From: Eledone cirrhosa | Lineage: Eukaryota | Length of the DNA: 64,000 nt | Direction: 5' to 3' | Assembly (NCBI GenBank): GCA_964016885.1 | Contig: OZ024743.1 | Location: 68,076,001 to 68,140,000, forward strand | In this document: positions 3,720 through 61,843 of the stretch, piece by piece | How the letters are laid out: the number at the start of each line of letters is the position of its first letter | Position numbering within the stretch: the first letter of the stretch is position 1 | The notes under the pieces: generated by a model | Told to the model about the DNA's origin: nothing | Databases searched by the model: none | What the model saw: only the letters and a program-made list of their open reading frames with translations | Made by a program: the position numbers and the translations under genes

Positions 3720-4008
3720 CCGGGGTGGGGGAAAAGGTTGTCTGTCGGACAATTCGGAACGCGTCTTTCGCTGTTTAAGATTTGAATATCTGAGGTATTC
3801 GGTCGGGCGCGCGTGCGCGCGAAATGGGGCTGGGTCACAGAAGTCAATGGCCGAATGACTCCCACTCCCTCATTCGGCCATTGACTTCTGTGACCCAGCC
3901 CCATTTCGCGCGCACGCGCGCCCGACCGAATACCTCAGATATTCAAATCTTAAACAGCGAAAGACGCGTTCCGAATTGTCCGACAGACAACCTTTTCCCC
4001 CACCCCGG
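3720..4008. repeat. Apparently perfect ~140 bp-arm inverted repeat inside the PLE
   Basis: 3720-3858 is the reverse complement of 3870-4008; 11 nt spacer ctcccactccc. Confidence 0.95.
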
Positions 4009-4450
4009 GTCGCTAAAACTGTGACAATGGGCCTTCCGTCTTTGTTTCCGCATTTGTCTATGTGTTTCCGGAAAGACGAGGCCCTGGTTTTAATGTGTTC
4101 CTTGATCCTGATGTGCAAAGGTCGAATTGTGCTACCTATGTAGTATTGGTTGCACCTGTCACATTCTATCTTATACACGACGTATGTGCGTAGGCAACAG
4201 TTAGCATGGCGTATCGGGCAGTCTCTGAGGGAGCATGCGTCAGTAGACTTTTCGGTTTTCCTGGAGAGGCATCTTCGCAGGGAGGGGCCCGAGTGGGCCA
4301 GGTGGATGTCGAGGCCCTCCCTCCGTATAGCCTTGCGGATAGCGTTGGTGGTTTTCTCGCCCAGGTGTGGTATTTTATGGAAGCACTTGGCTTGGGTGCT
4401 TCTCTGTCTCTTGCGTCTGGTGTCTCCTATTCTGTCTGTGATCGAGGTAG
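4008..4450 (-). pseudogene. PLE GIY-YIG endonuclease segment, C-terminus replaced by an inverted 3' sequence
   Basis: VVY..YYIG..R..EH motif within ORF 3870..4757; homology stops at the palindrome boundary near 4008. Confidence 0.85.
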
Positions 4451-6039
4451 GGTACCCCGTTCGTCTCCAGCACCTCGAGGAATCGCTTGGTATGAGTGAC
4501 ACTACTCGCGGGATCGCTGCATCTGTCTTTGATTCGCGCGATCTCGTTCGTGATGTATCCTCTTTTGGCACTGTTAGGGAGGGCGGACTTGTAGTGAACG
4601 AATAGGTCCCTGCAGGCTGCCTTTCTGTAGAAGTTGCAGTGGATCCCTCCTTGTTCCGTGATGTTGATTCGGAAGTCGAGGAGGGCAAGTGACCCGTCTT
4701 CGTTGGGGTGTTCAACACTGAAGTCAATGTTCTCATCCGTGTTGTTGAACGTCTCATAGATTCTGTTCGCCGTGTCTTGGGAAGAAGTGAGGATGAGGAT
4801 ATCGTCCACGTATCTTGAGAAAAAGGCTACGGCGTTGGGTTGGCAGGCGTTGAGAGCCTTTCGTTCGAGGTTGTCCATGTAGGAGATCACTAGTACACCT
4901 GATAGACTTGATCCCATGGGCAATCCCGAGGTTTGTTGGTAAATTTGGTCAAGGAATCCGAAGTAGGTGTTGTCGACGACGATGGATAGGAGTTGGTGGA
5001 TGTCAGTGGTGGTGAGCCCGAAGCAGTGTAGGTCGGTGGATTGGACGCGTTCCATCAGTATATTGACGGCCGGGAGTGCCGGGACCGAGGTGTAGAGAGC
5101 GACTACATCAAGGCTGAAGGCATATCTGTTATTCCTTCTGGTGTCGGGATCCATTTGATGCAGGCGCTTCAACACCTCCTCGGAGCTGTTAACGTGTCCC
5201 GGCAAGGTGTCTAAGATGGGTTTGAGTATTCTGGCTAGGAGCCATGAAATTTTGTAGAGTGGTCCCTCCACGCTCGATACGATGGGCCTGATTTTCAGGT
5301 CGGGTCCCTGTTTGTGTGTCTTCACGAGGTGATAGAAGGCGGGTAGTCTGCTGTTCCTCGTGAGGAGGTTGTATCTCAGCTTCTTAGGGAGCTTCCGCCG
5401 GTCGCAGATGTTGGTCCAGGCGGAGTTGATGTGTTCTTCTATCTGCGCGGGAGTGATTCCCGTGACCCTGGAGTAGAGGTTGTCATCGTCAAGGTGTTGG
5501 AGGGCCAGGGTGTTGTAGGCCTCTCTGCTGATGACGCAGAATTCTTTTCCCTTGTCGGAGGGGAGATAGATGAGGTTCTTCGATTTTAGGTTGGAGAGAG
5601 TGGTGAGTTGAGATTTGGTGAGGTTCTGTGCTGTGCGTGTGTGTGTGTGTTTGTGAAGTATATCCGAGATGGAGTGTTTAAGCCTTATGAGTTTGGTGTC
5701 GAGTTTGTGGTTGGTGGGTGGGGGGTGGAGTGGTTTGTCGGGTTGGTAGGTGGGGAACTTGGGGTGGGTTGTGTCGGCGCTGTTATTATCTGTGGCGCTG
5801 TTGATAGCGGTCACCCATTTAAGTTGGTAAGCGGCTCGACAAAAGTTGGCCTCGATGTTGAGTTTGAGTTTGTCGTCGAGACGTTGTGTGACGATGAACT
5901 TAGGTCCGAGGTGTAGGAGTTTCAGCTCGTCGCTCGTGAGAGTGCCGGTTAGGTCGGTAACCAGGTGCGTCGCATCGTTGAGGTATGGCTCGGTGTTGGT
6001 GGCAGCTGCGGTGGCGGTTGTTAAGTTGTTGTTTTCCAC
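4375..6039 (-). pseudogene. PLE reverse transcriptase reading frame (middle segment of a frameshifted ORF running ~6513 to ~4008)
   Basis: 554-aa ORF with PLE RT motifs (PSDKG, IRPIVS, YVDD, LLDF); upstream and downstream parts lie in other frames. Confidence 0.9.
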
Positions 6040-6734
6040 GTGGTTCTGTCCGTCTGTTCGTTAGTGTCGATGTTCTCGTTGTGGCGTTTCAACAAGATCC
6101 ACTCATATGTTCGCTTGAGTCGTTTTTTCTCGTATTTGACTCTGGAGTGGTAGCACCGGTCGATTGCTTTAGTGATATTTAGGAGCAAGTCTCCGGGTGC
6201 TATTGGCAGTCGATGTGTCCGCTCTGAGAGTGTCCGCTTATGGAGGTGTAATTGGCGGTTGAGGTGTCTCAGGATTTGTTTAATACACGTGCGATGTATG
6301 CGGTTAGTGGTGTTTTGGAAGGCTGGTGTACGTAGGCTTACTGATAAGCGGATGTTCTTGATGGTGTTGGGGATGACATCGTTTTTTAGGCAGCGTTTCA
6401 GGAAAATAATTTGGCAGCCAGCGTTGGCCCACTTCTCCGACAGGGGAAACGTATTCTCTATTCTGTCCGCCGCGGCTGTGGGGAGGCCACCAGTATGATT
6501 GACTGACTTGTCATTTTATCAGTCAGATGTTTTTAGACGGCCATAGAAATATATATATATATGAAGATTCTTGCACTAAATCTACTTTACTGCACAGCCT
6601 TCACAATATATTAAATAATAACAATAGTTATGAGACTTTGAATCACCATATGAACCTTAATGACTCTACTATCTATAGTTCATTACTACACACACACACA
6701 CACATCTCTATATATATATGAATATATACATACA

Positions 6735-10265: not shown

Positions 10266-11494
<1,229 letters not shown>

Positions 11495-14620: not shown

Positions 14621-14698
14621 TGGCATGTGAACAGAACTGCAGACACTAATGTTTCGGGGTATTACCCTTCATCAGTACAGTTCACTGTTCCCCTGCCA
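14621..14698 (-). ncRNA. Canonical type I hammerhead ribozyme with long stem I
   Basis: tggca..gaaca-gt-gaactgta CTGATGA a GGGT-aat-ACCC c GAAA CA-ttag-TG TC tgcagttc-tgttc..tgcca. Confidence 0.9.
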
Positions 14699-28781: not shown

Positions 28782-28817
28782 ATATATACTGTATATCTAA
28801 ATTCTAAAGTCTGTCTT

Positions 28818-29065
28818 AAGCCGGTGCTTATCCCGGTTTGATGGCGTGAAGCGACTGAGAGTACAAGACTCCCTCCTGGACAGGACGCCAGTCCATCGCA
28901 GGGTTAAACCCCCAGCTATTGCTGGTACTCATTTTCAGCTGAGTATACTGGAGCAACATGAAATGAAGTGGTTTAGTCAAGAACACAACACGCAACCCAG
29001 GATTCGAGCCCATGACATTATGATCGTAAGTCCAACGCTCTTACCACTAGGCCACGTGCCTCCAC
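28818..29065 (-). mobile_element. Second tRNA-derived SINE family with conserved central domain (other copies 52920-53230, 47505-47620)
   Basis: A-box TGGCCTAGTGG, B-box GGCTCGAATCC, then cctgcgatggactggcgtcctgtccagg..gtcgcttcacgc..aaaccgggataagc. Confidence 0.8.
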
Positions 29066-29075
29066 ACACACTCAA

Positions 29076-29110
<35 letters not shown>

Positions 29111-29112
29111 GA

Positions 29113-29881
29113 TATAAAGAATTAGTATATCTAGTAACATATATATACACAGATGCATACTTATGCTAGCAAATATATAGGTTTTGTCTTAGTAACTTTG
29201 TGGTTCAATGCATGGGGTTGCAGAACAATAATATGAGAGACGTAAAATAAGAAAATTATAAAATTAACTTACTTACTAAAATTTAACTCCAACTAATTAG
29301 TTTCTGAAAGGGAATAAACATAGTTCCGAAGAAACGTACGGAGAAGCCTTTCGTCATCAGGGAAGTCTATTCTCAGCTAAGTTTCCAGGCAATACGTGGA
29401 CACAGGGAACTTATACAAAAATAATTCAGTGGATGGAAAAAAGCAAAGCGTGGACTAAATTCCAAGCCATTGAAAAAATCACTGCCTACTGCGTCGGTGG
29501 CAAATTCAAAAGAATCAGTCACGTGACGTCGAGGTCAATCAGTGAAGAGTGGTTTGTTAAGAAGACAGCAGTCGGACCGTTACTATAGTAGCAGTTTTGG
29601 CCAATTTTTGCTCGACAAAATAATTTGGAGATAATTATAAAGAATTAGTATATCTAGTAACATATATATACACAGATGCATACTTATGCTAGCAAATATA
29701 TAGGTTTTGTCTTAGTAACTTTGTGGTTCAATGCATGGGGTTGCAGAACAATAACATGAGAGACGTAAAATAAGAAAATTATAAAATTAACTTACTTACT
29801 AGAATTTAACTCCAACTAATTAGTTTCTGAAAGGGAATAAACATAGTTCCGAAGAAACGTACGGAGAAGCCTTTCGTCATC
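29113..29881 (-). mobile_element. Retrozyme-like tandem (family E), 523 nt unit x ~1.5
   Basis: Direct repeat 29113/29636; hammerhead at 29286-29366; second hammerhead truncated within CTGATGA. Confidence 0.85.
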
Positions 29882-29886
29882 CTTCT

Positions 29887-29927
<41 letters not shown>

Positions 29928-29935
29928 ATCCTCCT

Positions 29936-29969
<34 letters not shown>

Positions 29970-29971
29970 TA

Positions 29972-30007
<36 letters not shown>

Positions 30008-30032
30008 TAGTATATATTTAACCAGTATATAC

Positions 30033-30103
<71 letters not shown>

Positions 30104-30105
<2 letters not shown>

Positions 30106-31130
30106 TAATTTAATATATCAACTAACATAAGCGCACAGATGCACGCCCATGCTAGCAAATACACAGGTTATGTCATAGTACCTAGGTGGTTCAATGCAGG
30201 AGAATGCAGAACAATAATATAAAAGACGTAAAATAAGAAAATATCTTTTTAAAAAATTTTAATAAATTTTTTACTTACTTACTTAAATTTTCACTCCAAC
30301 TAATTAGTTTCTGCAATGGGATAAAGACAGTTACGTAATCCAACTGTCGAGAATTCATTGCGTCATCAGGGAGTCTATTCTCAGTTAAGTCTCCAGGCAA
30401 TGCGCGGACACTGGCGGCACATATAAAAATAATAATAATTCGATAGATCGAACAGCTGGCGAGGACTGGATTCTATGTACCGAAATTCTCCCTGCTTCAG
30501 GTCAAATGGCCGATTCTAAAGAATCAATCACGTGACACAGAGGCTAGTTAGAAGGAATGGGATGGTAAGATGACTGACGCCTAATAACACCCCAAAAAAA
30601 ATTTTTTTAGAAGTGGTTTTGGCAAGTTTGCTCGACAAATCAGTGATTTGGAGATAAATATAGATAATTTAATATATCAACTAACATAAGCGCACAGATG
30701 CACGCCCATGCTAGCAAATACACAGGTTATGTCATAGTACCTAGGTGGTTCAATGCAGGAGAATGCAGAACAATAATATAAAAGACGTAAAATAAGAAAA
30801 TATCTTTTAAAAAAATTTAAAAAAATTTTTTTTTTTTTTTTTACTTACTTAAATTTTCACTCCAACTAATTAGTTTCTGCAATGGGATAAAGACAGTTAC
30901 GTAATCCAACTGTCGAGAATTCATTGCGTCATCAGGGAGTCTATTCTCAGTTAAGTCTCCAGGCAATGCGCGGACACTGGCGGCTCATATAAAAATAATA
31001 ATAATTCGATAGATCGAACAGCTGGCGAGGACTGGATTCTATGTACCGAAATTCTCACTGCTTTAGGTCAAATGGCCGATTCTAAAGAATCAATCACGTG
31101 ACACAGAGGCTAGTTAGAAGGAATGGGATG
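30104..31130 (-). mobile_element. Retrozyme-like tandem (family F, relative of E), ~560 nt unit x ~1.8
   Basis: Direct repeat 30104/30663; hammerheads at 30293-30374 and 30859-30940: actcc CTGATGA c GCAATG..GACAGTT..AACTGTC..CATTGC a GAAAC taatta GTT ggagt. Confidence 0.88.
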
Positions 31131-31190
<60 letters not shown>

Positions 31191-32340
31191 GTATATACTG
31201 GATAAATATATACTATATTTATATATATATAAATATGGAGGAGGTTATAGTTCACTTGAAGCATTGTGTAATGAGGTATAAACGTTTGTATATGTATAAT
31301 AAAGCCAAAACAATGCAGGTATGGACATAGAATAAAGAATGCAAATGCAAAAGATATTGTTGACAATTAGTCTTTTACCTTAGATTTATTTAAATGTCCT
31401 AAATTTTCGAGATAATATCTCTTCTTCAGAGGGAGTAAAGTTGTCAAACCAGTGTTCGAATAGCTTGCCGAGTCATGCTGACAGGAAATTGTATAGAGTA
31501 TATATTCTATCTCTGATGTCAAAGAGTTAAGATTAGGTGGATAAAGAGTAGTCTCCCTTCAAGAGGGTTTTTTTTTTTGTGTTTTTTGTGTGTGTGTGTG
31601 TGTGTGGGGGGGTTATACAAGCCTGTTTAAGTGTTGTAAGTATGTGAGTGTGTGTGTGTGAGTGTGTGAGTTTGAGAAGATATGTCTATACGTAAATGTG
31701 GGGGATAGATGTTATCTCGTGTTAGAACTGGTTTTGTGTGTGTATGTGTGAAAGAGAATAAGTGGAGGTGTAAGCGTGTGTGTGTGTGTGTGTGCGTGCG
31801 TGTGTGCGTGTGTGTGTGGGGGTTGTGTGTAAATGTGGGGCTAGGAGCTCTATCAAGTTATAAATTGGGTGTTGAGTTCTAGTCTATTATTAATTGGTGG
31901 TTGTGTTTGTCTATAATTAGTGATTCCTTAATTCTAAGATTGCCGAGGTTTCTTTCCTTAGTTTCTATCCTAACTGTTATGGTTTTGTCGGTGTTTTTGT
32001 ATTTAACTAGGTGTTTCTTAAATGAGGAAGCGTAAGTATTGAGGTGTTCTTTTATTCTTATGTGGAGTGGTCTGGTGGTGCTACCTACGTAGAATTTGTT
32101 GCATTTGTCACACTCTAGTCTGTATACGACGTAAGCCTGGTGGCATAGGTATGTGTCGTTGATGGGGCAGTTGGCTAGTCTGCAGCAGTTGTCATGTCTG
32201 GTGGAGTGTCTTTTGGTTAGCTGACCGCGTAGAGAAGGACCTGAGTGGGGCAGTGGATATCTAGTCCCTCTCGTCTGATAGCTCTGCGGATGGCTGTCGT
32301 TGTTTCTTCACTGAACTGTGGGAGCTTCAGGATGCAAGTG

Positions 32341-33480
32341 TTAGTGCCTCGGGTGTGGTGTCCTCTGTTCTTTCTGGCACGGTTTGTGGTGGATATCGTG
32401 TATCCGTTCCAGGAAATGTGTGGTGTGTGTGTCTCGGTCTCTAACGTCTATGCATTTGTTTCGGATACGTGCCAGTTCATTCCTTATGTATCCGAACTTG
32501 GCACCGAGTGGGAGGGCCGATCTGAAATGTACGAACAGGTCCCTGCTGGCGGCTTTTTTATAGAAGCAGGTGTGGATGTTGCCTTCCTCTGTTACCCTGA
32601 GTTGGAAGTCCAGTACGGATAGGGATCCGCGGTCATCGGGGTGTCCCATGCTGAACTTTATACTGGCGTCCATGCTGGAGAATGTTGTGTATATTTTATC
32701 TGCCTCCTCACGAGATGATGTAAGGATGAGTATGTCATCTACATATCGGATGAAGAAGGTATGGGAATGGCAGGTGTTGAGGGCTCGGCATTCGAGCTGG
32801 TTCATGTAGGTGATGGCCAGCTGGCTCGATAGGCTGGATCCCATGGGTAATCCTGTTGTCTGTCTGTATGTGTGGTGGTGGAAGGTGAAGTACGTGTTGT
32901 CTACTGTGAAGGACAAATGCTGGTGTATGTCCGTTGAGTGGAGGCCGTAGCAGTGGATGTCCTCTGCGACCACGCAGTCCGTCAATAAATAGACAGCTGG
33001 ATGAGCGGGGACTGTAGTGTGGGGGGAGACAACGTCGAGGCTAAAGGCGTAACTATTTAGTTTAAGTTGTTCTGGCTGGAATTGGTGTAGTCTACGTTTA
33101 ACTTCGTCGGAGCTACTGACATGCTCGGGAAAGGTGGAGAGTAGAGGCTTGAGGACCTGGGAGAGGGGCCAGGAAATTTTGTATAGGAGTCCTTCTGTGC
33201 TAGAGACGATGGGTCTTATTTGCGTATTAGTGCTATTCTTGTGGGTCTTGATGAGGTGGTAGAAAGTGGGCAGTCTGCTATTTCTAGTGGTGTAGTTGAG
33301 CGTAACTTTATTTGGGAGTTGTCTTCTCCTACATATATCGAACCAGATGGAGTTCGTGTGTTTTTCGATCTGAGCTGCAGTCATGTACGGGATCTCTGTG
33401 TATAATTCATTGTCGCTTAGGTGTTCAAAGGCTAGGTTGTTGTATGTGGCTTGAGAGATGACGCAAAACTCTTTACCTTT
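32341..33480 (-). pseudogene. PLE reverse transcriptase, 5'-truncated
   Basis: 382-aa ORF collinear with the RT at 4375-6039. Confidence 0.9.
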
Positions 33481-34452
33481 GGCCATCACCTACATGAACC
33501 AGCTAGAATGCCGAGTCCTCAACACCTGCCATTCCCATACCTTCTTCACCCGATATGTAGATGACATACTCATCCTTACATCATCCCGTGAGGAGGCAGA
33601 TAAAATATACACAACATTCTCCAGCATGGACGCCAGTATAAAGTTCAGCATGGAACACCCCGATGACCGCGGATCCCTATCCGTACTGGACTTCCAACTC
33701 AGGGTAACAGAGGAAGGCAACATCCACACCTGCTTCTATAAAAAAGCCGCCAGCAGGGACCTGTTCGTACATTTCAGATCGGCCCTCCCACTCGGTGCCA
33801 AGTTCGGATACATAAGGAAAGAACTGGCACGTATCCGGAACAAATGCACCGACGCTAGAGACCGAGACACACACACCACACATTTCCTGGACGTACTCAA
33901 ACTGAACGGATACACGACATCCACCACAAACCGTGCCAGAAAGAACAGAGGACACCACACCCGAGGCACTAACACTTGCTTCCTGAAGCTCCCACACTTC
34001 AGTGAAGAAACAATAACAGCCATCCGCAGAGCTATCAGACGAGAGGGACTAGATATCCACTGGCCCACTCAGGTCCTTCTCTACGCGGTCAGCTAACCAA
34101 AAGACACTCCACCCGACATGACAACTGCTGCAGACTAGCCAACTGCCCCATCAACGACACAGACCTATGCCACCAGGCTTACGTCGTATACAGACTAGAA
34201 TGTGACAAATGCAACAACTTCTACGTAGGTAGCACCACCAGACCAGTCCACATAAAAATAAAATAAAACATCAATACTAACGCTTCCTCATTTAAGAAAC
34301 ACCTAGTTAAATGCAAAAACACCGACAAAACCATAACAGTTAGGATAGAAACTAAGGAAAGAAACCTCGGCAATCTTAGAATTAAGGAAGCACTAATTAT
34401 AGACAAAACACAACCAACAATTAATAATAGACTAGAACTCAACACCCAATTT
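33480..34452 (+). pseudogene. PLE RT C-terminal half + GIY-YIG (inverted copy)
   Basis: 212-aa ORF beginning LAITYMNQLE, followed by a frameshifted endonuclease. Confidence 0.9.
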
Positions 34453-35314
34453 ATAACTTGATAGAGCTCCTAGCCCCCCTCCCCCCACACACATGCACGC
34501 ACGCACACACACACACACACGCTTACACCTCCACTTATTCTCTCTCACACATACACACACAAAACCAGTTCTAACACGAGATAACATCTATCCCCTACAT
34601 TTACGTATAGACATATCTTCTCACACTCACACACTCACACACACACACTCACATACTTACACACACTTAAACAGGCCTGTATAACCCCCCCCCCTAAAAA
34701 AAACAAAAAAACCCTCTTAAAGGGAGACTACTCATTATCCACCTAATCTTAACTCTTTGACATCAGAGATAGAATATATACTCTATACCATTTCCTTTTC
34801 AGCATGACTCGGCAAGCTATTCGAACACTGGTTTGACAACTTTACTCCCTCTGAAGAAGAGATATTATCTCGAAAATTTAGGACATTTAAATAAATCTAA
34901 GGTAAAAGACTAATTGTCAACAATATCTTTTGCATTTGCATTCTTTATTCTATGTCCATACCTGCATTGTTTTGGCATTATTATACATATACAAACGTTT
35001 ATATATATATATGTATATATGTATATATATATATATATATATATTATATTTATATATGTATGTATATATATATATATATATACACACAACCCCCCCCCCC
35101 TCACAGACACACATGATTTTACAAAAAAAACAAACTATACTTATACACGCGATCATGCACATAAATGCACTCGTGCTTGCGTCTACACTTATACATACAC
35201 ACACAGTCACATATAATTAGTATCACAACCATAACCATTAATATCGTGATTAGCATCATCATCATCACCATCATCATCATAATAGTTATCACCATCATCA
35301 TCAACGGCATCATG

Positions 35315-36145: not shown

Positions 36146-38030
36146 GTAAGTATGCATGCATACGTACATACATATATGTATACAGACGTACAGTAGCATG
36201 CACATATATATATATATACATATATACATACATATGCATACAGGTACACATACATATATGCACGTATCAGTTTAGCGGCGCTAACGTCGCTTTGTTCGTT
36301 TGTAAACAAACTGAACAGCCTGAATTTATGCCATACGGTGTTAAGGCAACCACGTCACCTTTTTGTTCAACACTGACACAGGAACGATGTACTAGTTTCA
36401 AGCTTGTTAGCTATCATCAGCACCGTTTACCCATCTGCCAGATAGTTGAACGTTCGAAAGTATATACTTTCCTTATGAAAATTAACGGCTGAGCAGCCTA
36501 ATTTGCATATTGAGTGAGTTAAATCGGTCAGGCATACCGAAAACGATAAATTGAAACAAAATGAAAACGAAATTTCATTTCTCACTCTTAGTATGGCACT
36601 TACTTAAATGTAAGTATGCATGCATACGTACATACATATATGTATACAGACGTACAGTAGCATGCACATATATATATATATATATACATATATACATACA
36701 TATATATATATATATACATATATACATACATATGCATACAGGTACACATACATATATGCACGTATCAGTTTAGTGGCGCTAACGTCGCTTTGTTCGTTTG
36801 TAAACAAACTGAACAGCCTGAATTTATGCCATACGGTGTTAAGGCAACCACGTCACCTTTTTGTTCAACACTGACACAGGAACGATGTACTAGTTTCAAG
36901 CTTGTTAGCTATCATCAGCACCGTTTACCCATCTGCCAGATAGTTGAACGTTCGAAAGTATATACTTTCCTTATGAAAATTAACGGCTGAGCAGCCTAAT
37001 TTGCATATTGAGTGAGTTAAATCGGTCAGGCATACCGAAAACGATAAATTGAAACAAAATGAAAACGAAATTTCATTTCTCACTCTTAGTATGGCACTTA
37101 CTTAAATGTAAGTATGCATGCATACGTACATACATATATGTATACAGACGTACAGTAGCATGCACATATATATATATATACATATATACATACATATGCA
37201 TACAGGTACACATACATATATGCACGTATCAGTTTAGCGGCGCTAACGTCGCTTTGTTCGTTTGTAAACAAACTGAACAGCCTGAATTTATGCCATACGG
37301 TGTTAAGGCAACCACGTCACCTTTTTGTTCAACACTGACACAGGAACGATGTACTAGTTTCAAGCTTGTTAGCTATCATCAGCACCGTTTACCCATCTGC
37401 CAGATAGTTGAACGTTCGAAAGTATATACTTTCCTTATGAAAATTAACGGCTGAGCAGCCTAATTTGCATATTGAGTGAGTTAAATCGGTCAGCCATACC
37501 GAAAACGATAAATTGAAACAAAATGAAAACGAAATTTCATTTCTCACTCTTAGTATGGCACTTACTTAAATGTAAGTATGCATGCATACGTACATACATA
37601 TATGTATACAGACGTACAGTAGCATGCACATATATATATATATATACATATATACATACATATGCATACAGGTACACATACATATATGCACGTATCAGTT
37701 TAGCGGCGCTAACGTCGCTTTGTTCGTTTGTAAACAAACTGAACAGCCTGAATTTATGCCATACGGTGTTAAGGCAACCACGTCACCTTTTTGTTCAACA
37801 CTGACACAGGAACGAACAAAGCGACGTTTGCGCCGCTAAACTGATACGTGCATATATGTATGTGTACCTGTATGCATATGTATGTATATATGTATATATA
37901 TATATATATGTGCATGCTACTGTACGTCTGTATACATATATGTATGTACGTATGCATGCATACTTACATTTAAGTAAGTTCCATACTAAGAGTGAGAAAT
38001 GAAATTTCGTTTTCATTTTGTTTCAATTTG
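36140..38030 (-). mobile_element. Retrozyme-like tandem array (family G): ~3.5 units of 464-498 nt plus terminal inversion
   Basis: Near-identical units, each with aacggtg CTGATGA t AGC-taacaa-GCT t GAAAC ta GTA catcgtt (36383-36427, 36881-36925, 37345-37389); inverted segment 37811-38030. Confidence 0.92.
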
Positions 38031-51361: not shown

Positions 51362-52346
51362 AAGATCAAAAGATGGTTAAAAGAGTTCCAAGTATTTTAT
51401 TATGCGCATTTCAAAAACAAATATCATCATGGGATGATATTTGCGTTCTCATCAGATAAAATAGGGAGACATGATATGGAGCTTAAAAAACACTTGTGAG
51501 CAGTGAAGTATTAAATCAACATATTCTTGGCCATACAAACTATATTTTTTTAATATACAATAATATTACCATTAGTACATTTTTGTAAACATATATACTT
51601 GTTGACGTTATATATTTTTTCCTCCTTAAATTTTCCCTCTTTCTTCTCTCCTTCCGTGCTCGTATTAAACCTATTATTTACTTGTACATATTACAATACA
51701 TAAAAACAAACTTAAACCCTAACTAATTCCTCTAAGTTCATAATTCATTTAATCTCTCCTTTTTTCACATTGTATCCTGAATATCCTTAATATTTTTATT
51801 TTAATAATACATATTAATAAATTCTTTTTTTCGCACATATTATTAAACCCTTCAATATATAAACCTTAAATAAATACTATTCTTAATTCATTTTTCTTTA
51901 ATCATAAACATCACCATTCATAAACCTCATTAACTTTTAATTTCAAGATCTTTTAAAATTATATATCATCTTTCAACGGTTTTTTAATTTCTTTCTGTCA
52001 GACAATGTTTTCTCAGTTGTAAAGGCTATTTATCTCTGTCTATCACTCATTTCTCCTCCTCTCACATCCTTCCTTCTTATACTCCTCCCCCGTCATCCTT
52101 TATTTTCTTTCTTACTCTTCCTTACCTCCCCCCCCCCTCATTTTTTTCCAACCTCATATATATATCCATCTTACATTATTTCTCATATGTTGATTTAACA
52201 CTTCACTTTTTGCAAGTGATTTTTAAGCTTCATATCATGTCTCCCTATTTTATCTGATGAGAACGCAAAAATCATCCCATGATGATATTTGTTTTTTAAA
52301 TGCGCATAATAACATACTTGGAACTCTTTTAACCATCTTTTGATCT

Positions 52347-60597: not shown

Positions 60598-60903
60598 CTA
60601 TATTTATAAAACCATATTTATTCTATTATATATATTTCAAGGGTACCAAAGATTTGGTACGCTCTCATCGGATAAAATAAAAAGTTTGTTTTATAAATAT
60701 TGACATAACCAGGAAATAATAACTTAATAGTTCAAGTTTTTCCTGGATAATCTAGCCAGGAAAGACTTGAACTGTTAAGTTATTATTTCCTGGTTATGTC
60801 AATATTTATAAAACAAAGTTTGTATTTTATCTGATGAGGGCGTACCAATGTTTTGGCACCCTTGAAATATATATAATAGAATAAATATGATGTTATAAAT
60901 ATA
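60598..60903. mobile_element. Fold-back element with a hammerhead in each arm
   Basis: Centre ~60750. Plus 60823-60883: tattttat CTGATGA..GTACCAA..TTGGCAC..GAAA tatata TA atagaata. Minus 60619-60679 has CCGATGA. Confidence 0.82.
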
Positions 60904-61730: not shown

Positions 61731-61843
61731 ACCGGACTCGAGTTTCGGCCACACTTAATGCAGCAGTAGGGTGCACTGCACCCTCTGTCTGCATATATTA
61801 TACAACAATGCGTATAATCGGCGTATGTGGCTTCATCAGCGGT
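61731..61843 (-). ncRNA. Type I hammerhead ribozyme with branched stem II, within a ~500 nt element (61580-62075)
   Basis: accg CTGATGA a GCCACA..[two hairpins]..TGTGGC c GAAAC tcga GTC cggt. Confidence 0.88.

Follow-up and report, generated by a model that had tools for sequence, protein, structure and literature searches.

A type I hammerhead motif with a covarying long stem II in an abundant tandem repeat family of Eledone cirrhosa

The window analysed here, a stretch of 64,000 nucleotides, contains two adjacent tandem elements, E and F, with hammerhead ribozyme (HHR) motifs in which stem II differs in sequence and is nevertheless paired, and in which a C and an A occupy the positions of the canonical G10.1-C11.1 pair. 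This raises the question of whether the pairing has been maintained by selection on RNA structure, and what kind of element would carry such a hammerhead. We consider it probable that E and F are subfamilies of a non-coding repeat of about 10,000 copies, having a type I HHR motif with a long covarying stem II and a fixed mismatch at its base, and that the repeat is likely to be a retrozyme which Penelope-like elements (PLEs) mobilise, with a predicted pseudoknot as a brace.

The E and F insertions and their repeat family

The features of the two insertions are as follows.

29106..29881, minus strand: subfamily E insertion, about 1.5 units of 523 nt; the second HHR core is the point of 5' truncation; 3' end in (TA)n
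29286..29374, minus strand: E type I HHR, complete
29374-29370, minus strand: E predicted pseudoknot strand GAGAA
29366-29361 with 29290-29286, minus strand: E stem I
29360-29354, minus strand: E core C3-A9, followed by C10.1 at 29353
29352-29347 with 29311-29306, minus strand: E outer stem II
29345-29341, minus strand: E internal-loop strand UUCUC
29305, minus strand: E A11.1, then GAAA (29304-29301) and the palindromic stem III
29291, minus strand: E U17, with the predicted cleavage site 3' of it
29809..29881, minus strand: incomplete second E HHR (motif remnant 29814-29881), without C3, U4, 5' stem I and pseudoknot strand
30092..31132, minus strand: subfamily F insertion, two complete HHRs in about 1.85 units of 559-566 nt; 3' end in (TC)n/(TA)n
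30293..30382, minus strand: F HHR 1; core 30369-30363, C10.1 30362, A11.1 30312, U17 30298; stem I ACUCC/GGAGU, outer stem II GCAAUG/CAUUGC, inner stem GACAGUU/AACUGUC
30382-30377 and 30354-30349, minus strand: complementary strands GAGAAU and AUUCUC of F HHR 1
30859..30948, minus strand: F HHR 2, identical in sequence to F HHR 1; C3 at 30935, U17 at 30864
29987..30079: AT-rich flank, with an inverted duplicate (98%, 93 nt) at 31144-31236 on the opposite side of the F insertion

The sequence-only reading had described tandem units of 523 and about 560 nt, and the measured spacings (523 for E, 566/559 for F) agree. It had also claimed that E and F share an identical core and stem III, and in a loose descriptor search every minus-strand motif of the two did have the same form, CUGAUGA-C...A-GAAA-CUAAUUAG-UU. 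The window holds a single full HHR of E because the second copy is cut within its core, at a junction where GTCATC is common to the element and the nearby flank. The pseudoknot strand of F HHR 2 (30948-30943) lies just beyond the interval delimited in the sequence-only reading. The units have a G + C content of 36%, and those of E and F are 69% identical (392/570 columns). The 93-nt inverted duplication around the F insertion is possibly a by-product of 5' joining. A tRNA-like fragment (28 bits, window 28800-29060), at the end of an apparent SINE, directly adjoins the E insertion.

At least eight subfamilies, E and F among them, make up a non-coding repeat family with units of 520-590 nt, which is represented by approximately 10,000 copies in the 3.0-Gb genome, dispersed over many contigs. 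The stem III motif had 9,628 genome matches and its reversed control 0. With the full motif, 8,608 copies carried C·A and U7 (CUGAUGA), 1,474 carried C·A and a base other than U at position 7 (C in 99 of the first 100 listed), and 440 had a base other than C at 10.1. Among the first 100 of these 440, a hand count gave 67 A, 30 U and 3 G; the A belonged mostly to one A·A subfamily, while the U was spread over several subfamilies, as CpG decay would predict. This CpG-type change to U-A is frequent and founded no subfamily, whereas C to A founded one. Position 11.1 was A in nearly all copies: a pyrimidine at 10.1 with 11.1 other than A was found in 45 scattered copies, and R10.1 with Y11.1 in only 3 copies genome-wide, none of them G-C (45+3 exceptions in about 10,500). 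G10.1-C11.1 is absent from every subfamily. The C and A noted in place of that pair do flank the outer stem II of both E and F, and the mismatch is real and fixed in these two; across the subfamilies, however, it is not strictly C·A, as one is A·A.

Core, stems and covariation

The E/F hammerhead has the type I layout, with three helices and an open helix I, and the type I core CUGANGA...GAAA...UH, in which N7 is U or C depending on the subfamily; the predicted cleavage site is GUU. It departs from the type I consensus at R10.1-Y11.1, which was paired in none of 30 copies, and the G-C next to this mismatch was invariant (30/30). These 30 copies were picked by hand to span the subfamilies, and include one with a foreign 5' flank and one misaligned by a column, both retained. 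The outer stem II was paired in 99.4% of cells, helix I in 96% and helix III in 100%, compared with 37-50% in slid-register controls. One outer stem II position showed all four Watson-Crick types (AU13/UA9/GC5/CG3) and another GC19/UA10. The states GAAAGG/CCUUUC of E and GCAAUG/CAUUGC of F, which the sequence-only reading had contrasted, differ by two double changes with pairing kept, and they are accompanied in the family by GUAAGG/CCUUAC, GUAAUG/CAUUAC, GAAAUG/CAUUUC, GGAAUG/CAUUCC and GGGAUG/CAUUCC. E and F alone supply only two events; the genome-wide set raises the pattern above chance, the covariation score being reached by 0 of 500 shuffles. Helix III never varies and therefore lacks covariation support in the E/F family, and a genome search for a changed stem III gave 1 sporadic copy.

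Since related sequences can beat shuffles, more weight was given to events counted on trees. On a tree built from flanks only (40 copies, 391 columns outside the ribozyme), with the order F-H-G-(E,K)-(I,J), the outer stem II underwent five compensatory steps and one wobble. In a second tree of 50 tips, from which 8 long ones of 58 had been dropped, the outer stem II changed no more slowly than the flanks (14 internal changes over its 12 columns, against 0.8 per column for the flanks), but its pairing was kept. One minor subfamily departs from this with a bulge or mismatch in the outer stem. The proposed selection on stem II pairing is hence supported, on comparative grounds, by both the genome-wide copies and the flank-only tree.

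The invariance of the core in the tree counts is partly inherent in the search patterns. Because these patterns required the core, the family was resampled by a downstream motif (8,722 matches; the first 30 loci and 20 picked by hand for novelty). The whole HHR region was present in 38 of 60 rows, 29 of them intact and 9 with scattered single lesions; A11.1 was present in all 38, and N7 was the only subfamily-level core change in the resample and the trees. The core lesion A6G recurs in three copies of different subfamilies (L208, L222 and L239). No A-to-I editing signature was detected on the HHR strand of 50 of 58 copies (A>G 7.6 versus T>C 7.2 per 1000).

Beyond the outer stem, the inner stem GACAGUU/AACUGUC of F was reproduced by RNAfold. 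The inner hairpin UCCG/CGGA that had been assigned to E was replaced in the RNAfold structure by CGUA(C)GUUUC paired with GGAACUAUG, in register with the inner stem of F. Over 30 copies this homologous register was 89% paired, with double changes in 5/5 pairs; the UCCG/CGGA register was 60% paired, with one pair broken in 20/30. The inner stem is capped by a cUUCGg tetraloop in subfamilies E, I, J and L, and by unrelated loops in others. The expectation that the variant would probably escape standard descriptors is borne out for the Rfam models, which gave zero hammerhead matches in 29000-31200 at E values up to 10; among the 150 matches listed for the window and the 32 for the region there was none.

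A predicted pseudoknot and a second hammerhead family

The sequence GAGAA, located just 5' of the 5-bp stem I, is complementary to UUCUC, the 5' strand of the stem II internal loop that follows position 7. The first five pairs of this putative pseudoknot can form in 28-30 of 30 copies, and a G-C has become A-U in subfamily I. In the first 100 of the 1,474 rows mentioned above, counted by hand with the loop left free, flank A faced loop U in 18 of 21 cases (the remainder 3 A·C) and flank G faced loop C in 76 of 79 (the remainder 2 G·U and 1 G·A). This covariation is probably a single event within the E/F family, as L222 and subfamily I are sisters. Counting at least two positions in the second family described below, approximately three compensatory events are independent. 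We infer that the complementarity and its compensatory changes likely represent a tertiary contact between helices I and II. The predicted contact would explain the length of stem II, and this covarying pairing with the strand 5' of stem I, missed in the sequence-only reading, is likely the reason for the long stem. In a literature search covering titles, abstract openings and passages, no type I HHR with a pseudoknot to an internal loop of helix II was found, nor, within the same scope, an HHR with C·A at 10.1·11.1.

Further hammerheads and PLEs are present in the window.

10342..11300: second HHR repeat family; copies at 10418 (minus), 10741 (plus) and 11228 (plus); unit about 487 nt
36390-37382, minus strand: tandem HHR repeat; unit 464-498 nt; U·U at the stem II base, as in axolotl HHR_Amex2
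61735-61839, minus strand: type I HHR whose stem II is branched and 85 nt long; A·C at 10.1·11.1
14642-14675 (minus), 51401-51455 (minus) and 60831-60875 (plus): three type I HHR motifs of different families
31277-35003 and 3870-6515: Penelope-like elements, with reverse transcriptase (RT) by Pfam and C-terminal GIY-YIG by eye
8748, minus strand: further minimal HHR

The second family, with at least 1,545 genome matches, has a CUGACGA core, a GUA site, a two-tier stem II and a stem III loop that varies among copies. It contains a perfect 8-bp pseudoknot complement, UGAAAAGA/UCUUUUCA. Pairing of this helix reached 95.8% in 24 copies, two of its positions varying as AU11/GC10/GU3 and GC16/AU6 (events counted by position, without a tree), and one subfamily (7 copies) has an A·G mismatch within it. 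At 10.1·11.1, the 76 rows retained (78 minus one E/F-type copy and one wrong-GAAA row) comprised A-U 24, G·U 22, G-C 18 and A·G 6, with a few U·U, C·A, C·U, U·G and A·C, suggesting that this position is relaxed wherever the architecture occurs. Short motifs common to the second family and E/F can be seen by eye. Homology between the two was not significant, the local score being 169 against a shuffle maximum of 179.5 and the nhmmer E values 0.2-8, no better than reversed controls; the second family is therefore either independent or very old.

As to the remaining hammerheads, the flank GGCG of the HHR at 61735-61839 (minus strand) complements CGCC past its outer stem, over 4 bp only. The motifs at 51401-51455 and 60831-60875 have a common stem I flank and G·U at 10.1·11.1. 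A fragment of the 36390-37382 repeat family is inserted in L227.

Mobilisation, mechanism and relation to known systems

The E/F units are tandem and non-coding (longest Met ORF 27-51 aa) with one type I HHR each, as in a non-LTR retrozyme. Of 101 pairs of neighbouring copies, 63 were tandem, 35 diverging and 3 converging, and 55 of the 63 tandem pairs were spaced at 508-594 nt. The last copies reached (TA)5+ within 260 nt in 129 of 150 cases, with the (TA)n junctions clustered approximately 56 and 175 nt beyond the cleavage site rather than at it. The insertion anatomy (5' truncation, partial tandems, an inverted 5' copy and a microsatellite target) is of the PLE type, and the same arrangement appears in the available part of a description of PLEs (10.1101/2021.04.23.441226). 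These tandems and outward-facing inverted pairs in (TA)n, as in PLEs, indicate that the E/F element is likely a retrozyme mobilised by PLEs. A tblastn search with the window PLE RT as query found no match near copies in 190 loci of 2-4 kb, a search that distant RTs may escape, and the E/F profile matched no PLE within the 64-kb window that would point to pLTR homology. The PLE at 31277-35003 forms an inverted pair facing outwards, and carries a minimal HHR of its own at 31429 (minus) and 34851 (plus). The HHRs of the window PLEs are minimal, unlike that of E/F, and have an extra A after A9. The window RT was placed among eukaryotic RT clusters in an atlas search.

On the core, stems, covariation, copy numbers and arrangement, all of which are observed, the following mechanism may be built. 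In the tandem transcript, the purine strand that precedes the 5-bp stem I would pair with the pyrimidine internal-loop strand past seven stem II positions. This pseudoknot would replace the usual loop 1-loop 2 contact and hold stems I and II parallel, a step in which we have good confidence. We propose that stem II is long because the inner hairpin keeps the internal loop closed. A GUU site and a 10.1·11.1 mismatch are each expected to slow cleavage. With the brace in place, both the GUU site and a C·A or A·A at 10.1·11.1 might be accommodated by the core, probably yielding a slow ribozyme; this step we favour by a small measure. U·U is named the best-tolerated 10.1·11.1 mismatch in the available text of PMC3088659. 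The 12-nt palindrome would let two HHRs share a stem III, with a lone copy trapped with its core paired to loop III, a step that seems somewhat better than evenly balanced. The predicted monomer fold with this pairing lies 2.5-3 kcal/mol below the active fold, and two copies are predicted to form a 10-bp stem III duplex (-9.0 kcal/mol), in agreement with the known dimer mode of animal type I HHRs. A nicked (TA)n would then prime the unit RNA, probably circularised, at internal AU-rich sites, and the PLE RT would read through the cleavage junction, which would account for the tandems, the truncated 5' ends and the inverted 5' copies. Mobilisation of the PLE type is, in our judgement, very likely. 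Copies span the cleavage site, so the template must have been either re-ligated (circular) or uncleaved; a circular template is an even call. Folded as circles, the units gave -139 for F against -110 ± 6 for shuffles, and -102 for E against -92 ± 5.

The alternatives differ in which of these steps they dispute. An active HHR retrozyme might dispense with the pseudoknot, GAGAA pairing instead with the U-tract 3' of stem I and thereby extending it, with UUCUC kept for, e.g., protein binding or non-canonical loop contacts. RNAfold pairs this local extension in E, 85.8% of its cells are paired, and in subfamily I both the A tract and the U tract are longer; however, the local helix is rich in G·U, shows 0 double changes and scores equally when slid by one column, while in two families the loop strand follows the flank strand base for base, and we regard this explanation as unlikely. 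A stronger contender, compatible with the pseudoknot and possible though not favoured, takes the C and A as two insertions, i.e., the known extra base of PLE HHRs after A9 and a new extra A before G12, so that the true G10.1-C11.1 lies one step out. It accords with the invariant G-C adjoining the mismatch (30/30), with the near-invariance of A11.1 where 10.1 is C or A, and with the extra A in the HHRs of the window PLEs; PLE HHRs keep an extra nucleotide after A9 along with G10.1-C11.1 in the available text of PMC4209133. Against it, the base of the seven-position stem is occupied in the second family by G-C, G·U, A-U, A·G, U·U or C·A, which fits substitution, although the homology of that family to E/F is not significant.

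More radically, the motif may no longer cleave, its fold serving the PLE RT for recognition or packaging, with uncleaved read-through RNA as the template. The GUU site, the base mismatch, the predicted inactive monomer fold and the integrated 3' ends downstream of the cleavage site could all be so explained, and 8/9 Xenopus retrozymes were inactive in vitro according to the part of 10.64898/2026.07.22.740005 that describes them. Yet across subfamilies down to 69% identity the core varies only at N7, the sole position free in catalysis, and the UH site is retained, which makes a non-cleaving motif improbable. Chance complementarity, or spread as a DNA-level satellite without an RNA stage, is very improbable indeed: nothing specific favours it except that kinship of copies inflates shuffle tests, and it conflicts with the repeated compensatory steps on an independent tree, the strand-polar 3' ends, the 35:3 ratio of diverging to converging pairs and the dispersal of copies over many contigs.

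The proposed braced, PLE-mobilised retrozyme can be compared with published systems through the available portions of the papers cited, the literature consulted also including PMC13725137, PMC6155905 and PMC6765202. Non-LTR animal retrozymes (PMC7229834; 10.64898/2026.07.22.740005) similarly have short non-coding tandem units of <45% GC with one type I HHR each, thousands of copies and PLEs in the same genome, and retrozymes are treated as PLE derivatives in the latter source, in which only 1/9 Xenopus retrozyme dimers was cleaved in vitro. Unit sizes are 170-400 nt (PMC7229834) or 51-972 (10.64898/2026.07.22.740005), as against 520-590 nt for the E/F family. Unlike those retrozymes, E/F copies lie in (TA)n, mostly as short arrays and as inverted pairs, and E/F has a two-tier stem II with an internal loop, C·A/A·A, a GUU site and a predicted pseudoknot (the Mytilus HHR figure in the supplement of PMC7229834 lies outside this comparison). 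Axolotl HHR_Amex2 has U·U at the helix II base (PMC7229834), a further point of resemblance, and a natural U10.1·U11.1 mismatch has already been published (PMC3088659, PMC7229834). The pLTR HHRs of PLEs (PMC4209133) resemble E/F in a helix II of 7-8 bp, a helix I of 4-5 bp, an unpaired base after A9, a palindromic stem III, covariation-rich families and pairs on opposite strands separated by 100-700 bp; families of PLE HHRs that covary and have a large helix II are on record there. They differ in that G10.1-C11.1 sits directly on G12, where E/F has an A also before G12; in being mostly without helix III, where E/F has a 3-bp helix III plus loop; and in being described, in the portion available, without tertiary contacts, where E/F has a predicted pseudoknot and no RT attached.

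Pseudoknots occur in ~40% of the HHRs considered in PMC3088659, and the pseudoknotted HHRs of that paper and of PMC7936874, like the E/F prediction, join the arms of stems I and II by a Watson-Crick pseudoknot; in the published cases, as far as the available text goes, the partner is a terminal loop or tail, and in E/F an internal loop. HDV-like type III HHRs have a 5-bp helix I and a 6-bp helix II (PMC7936874), and in them a helix I internal loop pairs with the helix II capping loop, whereas type I E/F would have the mirror arrangement, with a helix II internal loop. In the PK hammerhead crystal structure (PMC11300833) the pseudoknot is a tertiary brace, as predicted for E/F, but takes the place of helix II, which in E/F is intact and extended. 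Retrozymes, pseudoknotted HHRs, stem II base mismatches and family-level covariation were thus known before, and E/F is not a new class. From its testable sequence features, the E/F system is likely a PLE-mobilised non-LTR retrozyme, whose HHR lacks the consensus 10.1-11.1 pair and would be compensated by the predicted pseudoknot. Only tentatively, and with some doubt, may all of this be joined into one reading: a new HHR architecture in which an internal-loop pseudoknot on an extended helix II permits the loss of the most conserved helix II pair, with the mismatch actively kept, and which, together with GUU and a dimer-gated stem III, tunes a deliberately slow ribozyme, present in more than 10,000 copies that Rfam models do not see, so that circular or multimeric RNA survives for PLE copying.

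The absence of Rfam matches (0) indicates that very abundant ribozyme families can escape its models. Whether retrozymes are copied from a circle or from an uncleaved multimer becomes testable through the 3' ends, which lie at fixed distances of 56 and 175 nt past the cleavage site. If the E/F HHR cleaves, the fold space of natural hammerheads would be widened, and its eight subfamilies would provide a natural series for a tertiary brace that offsets core-proximal defects, a series to which the second family adds members having G-C, G·U, A-U, A·G and C·A at 10.1·11.1.
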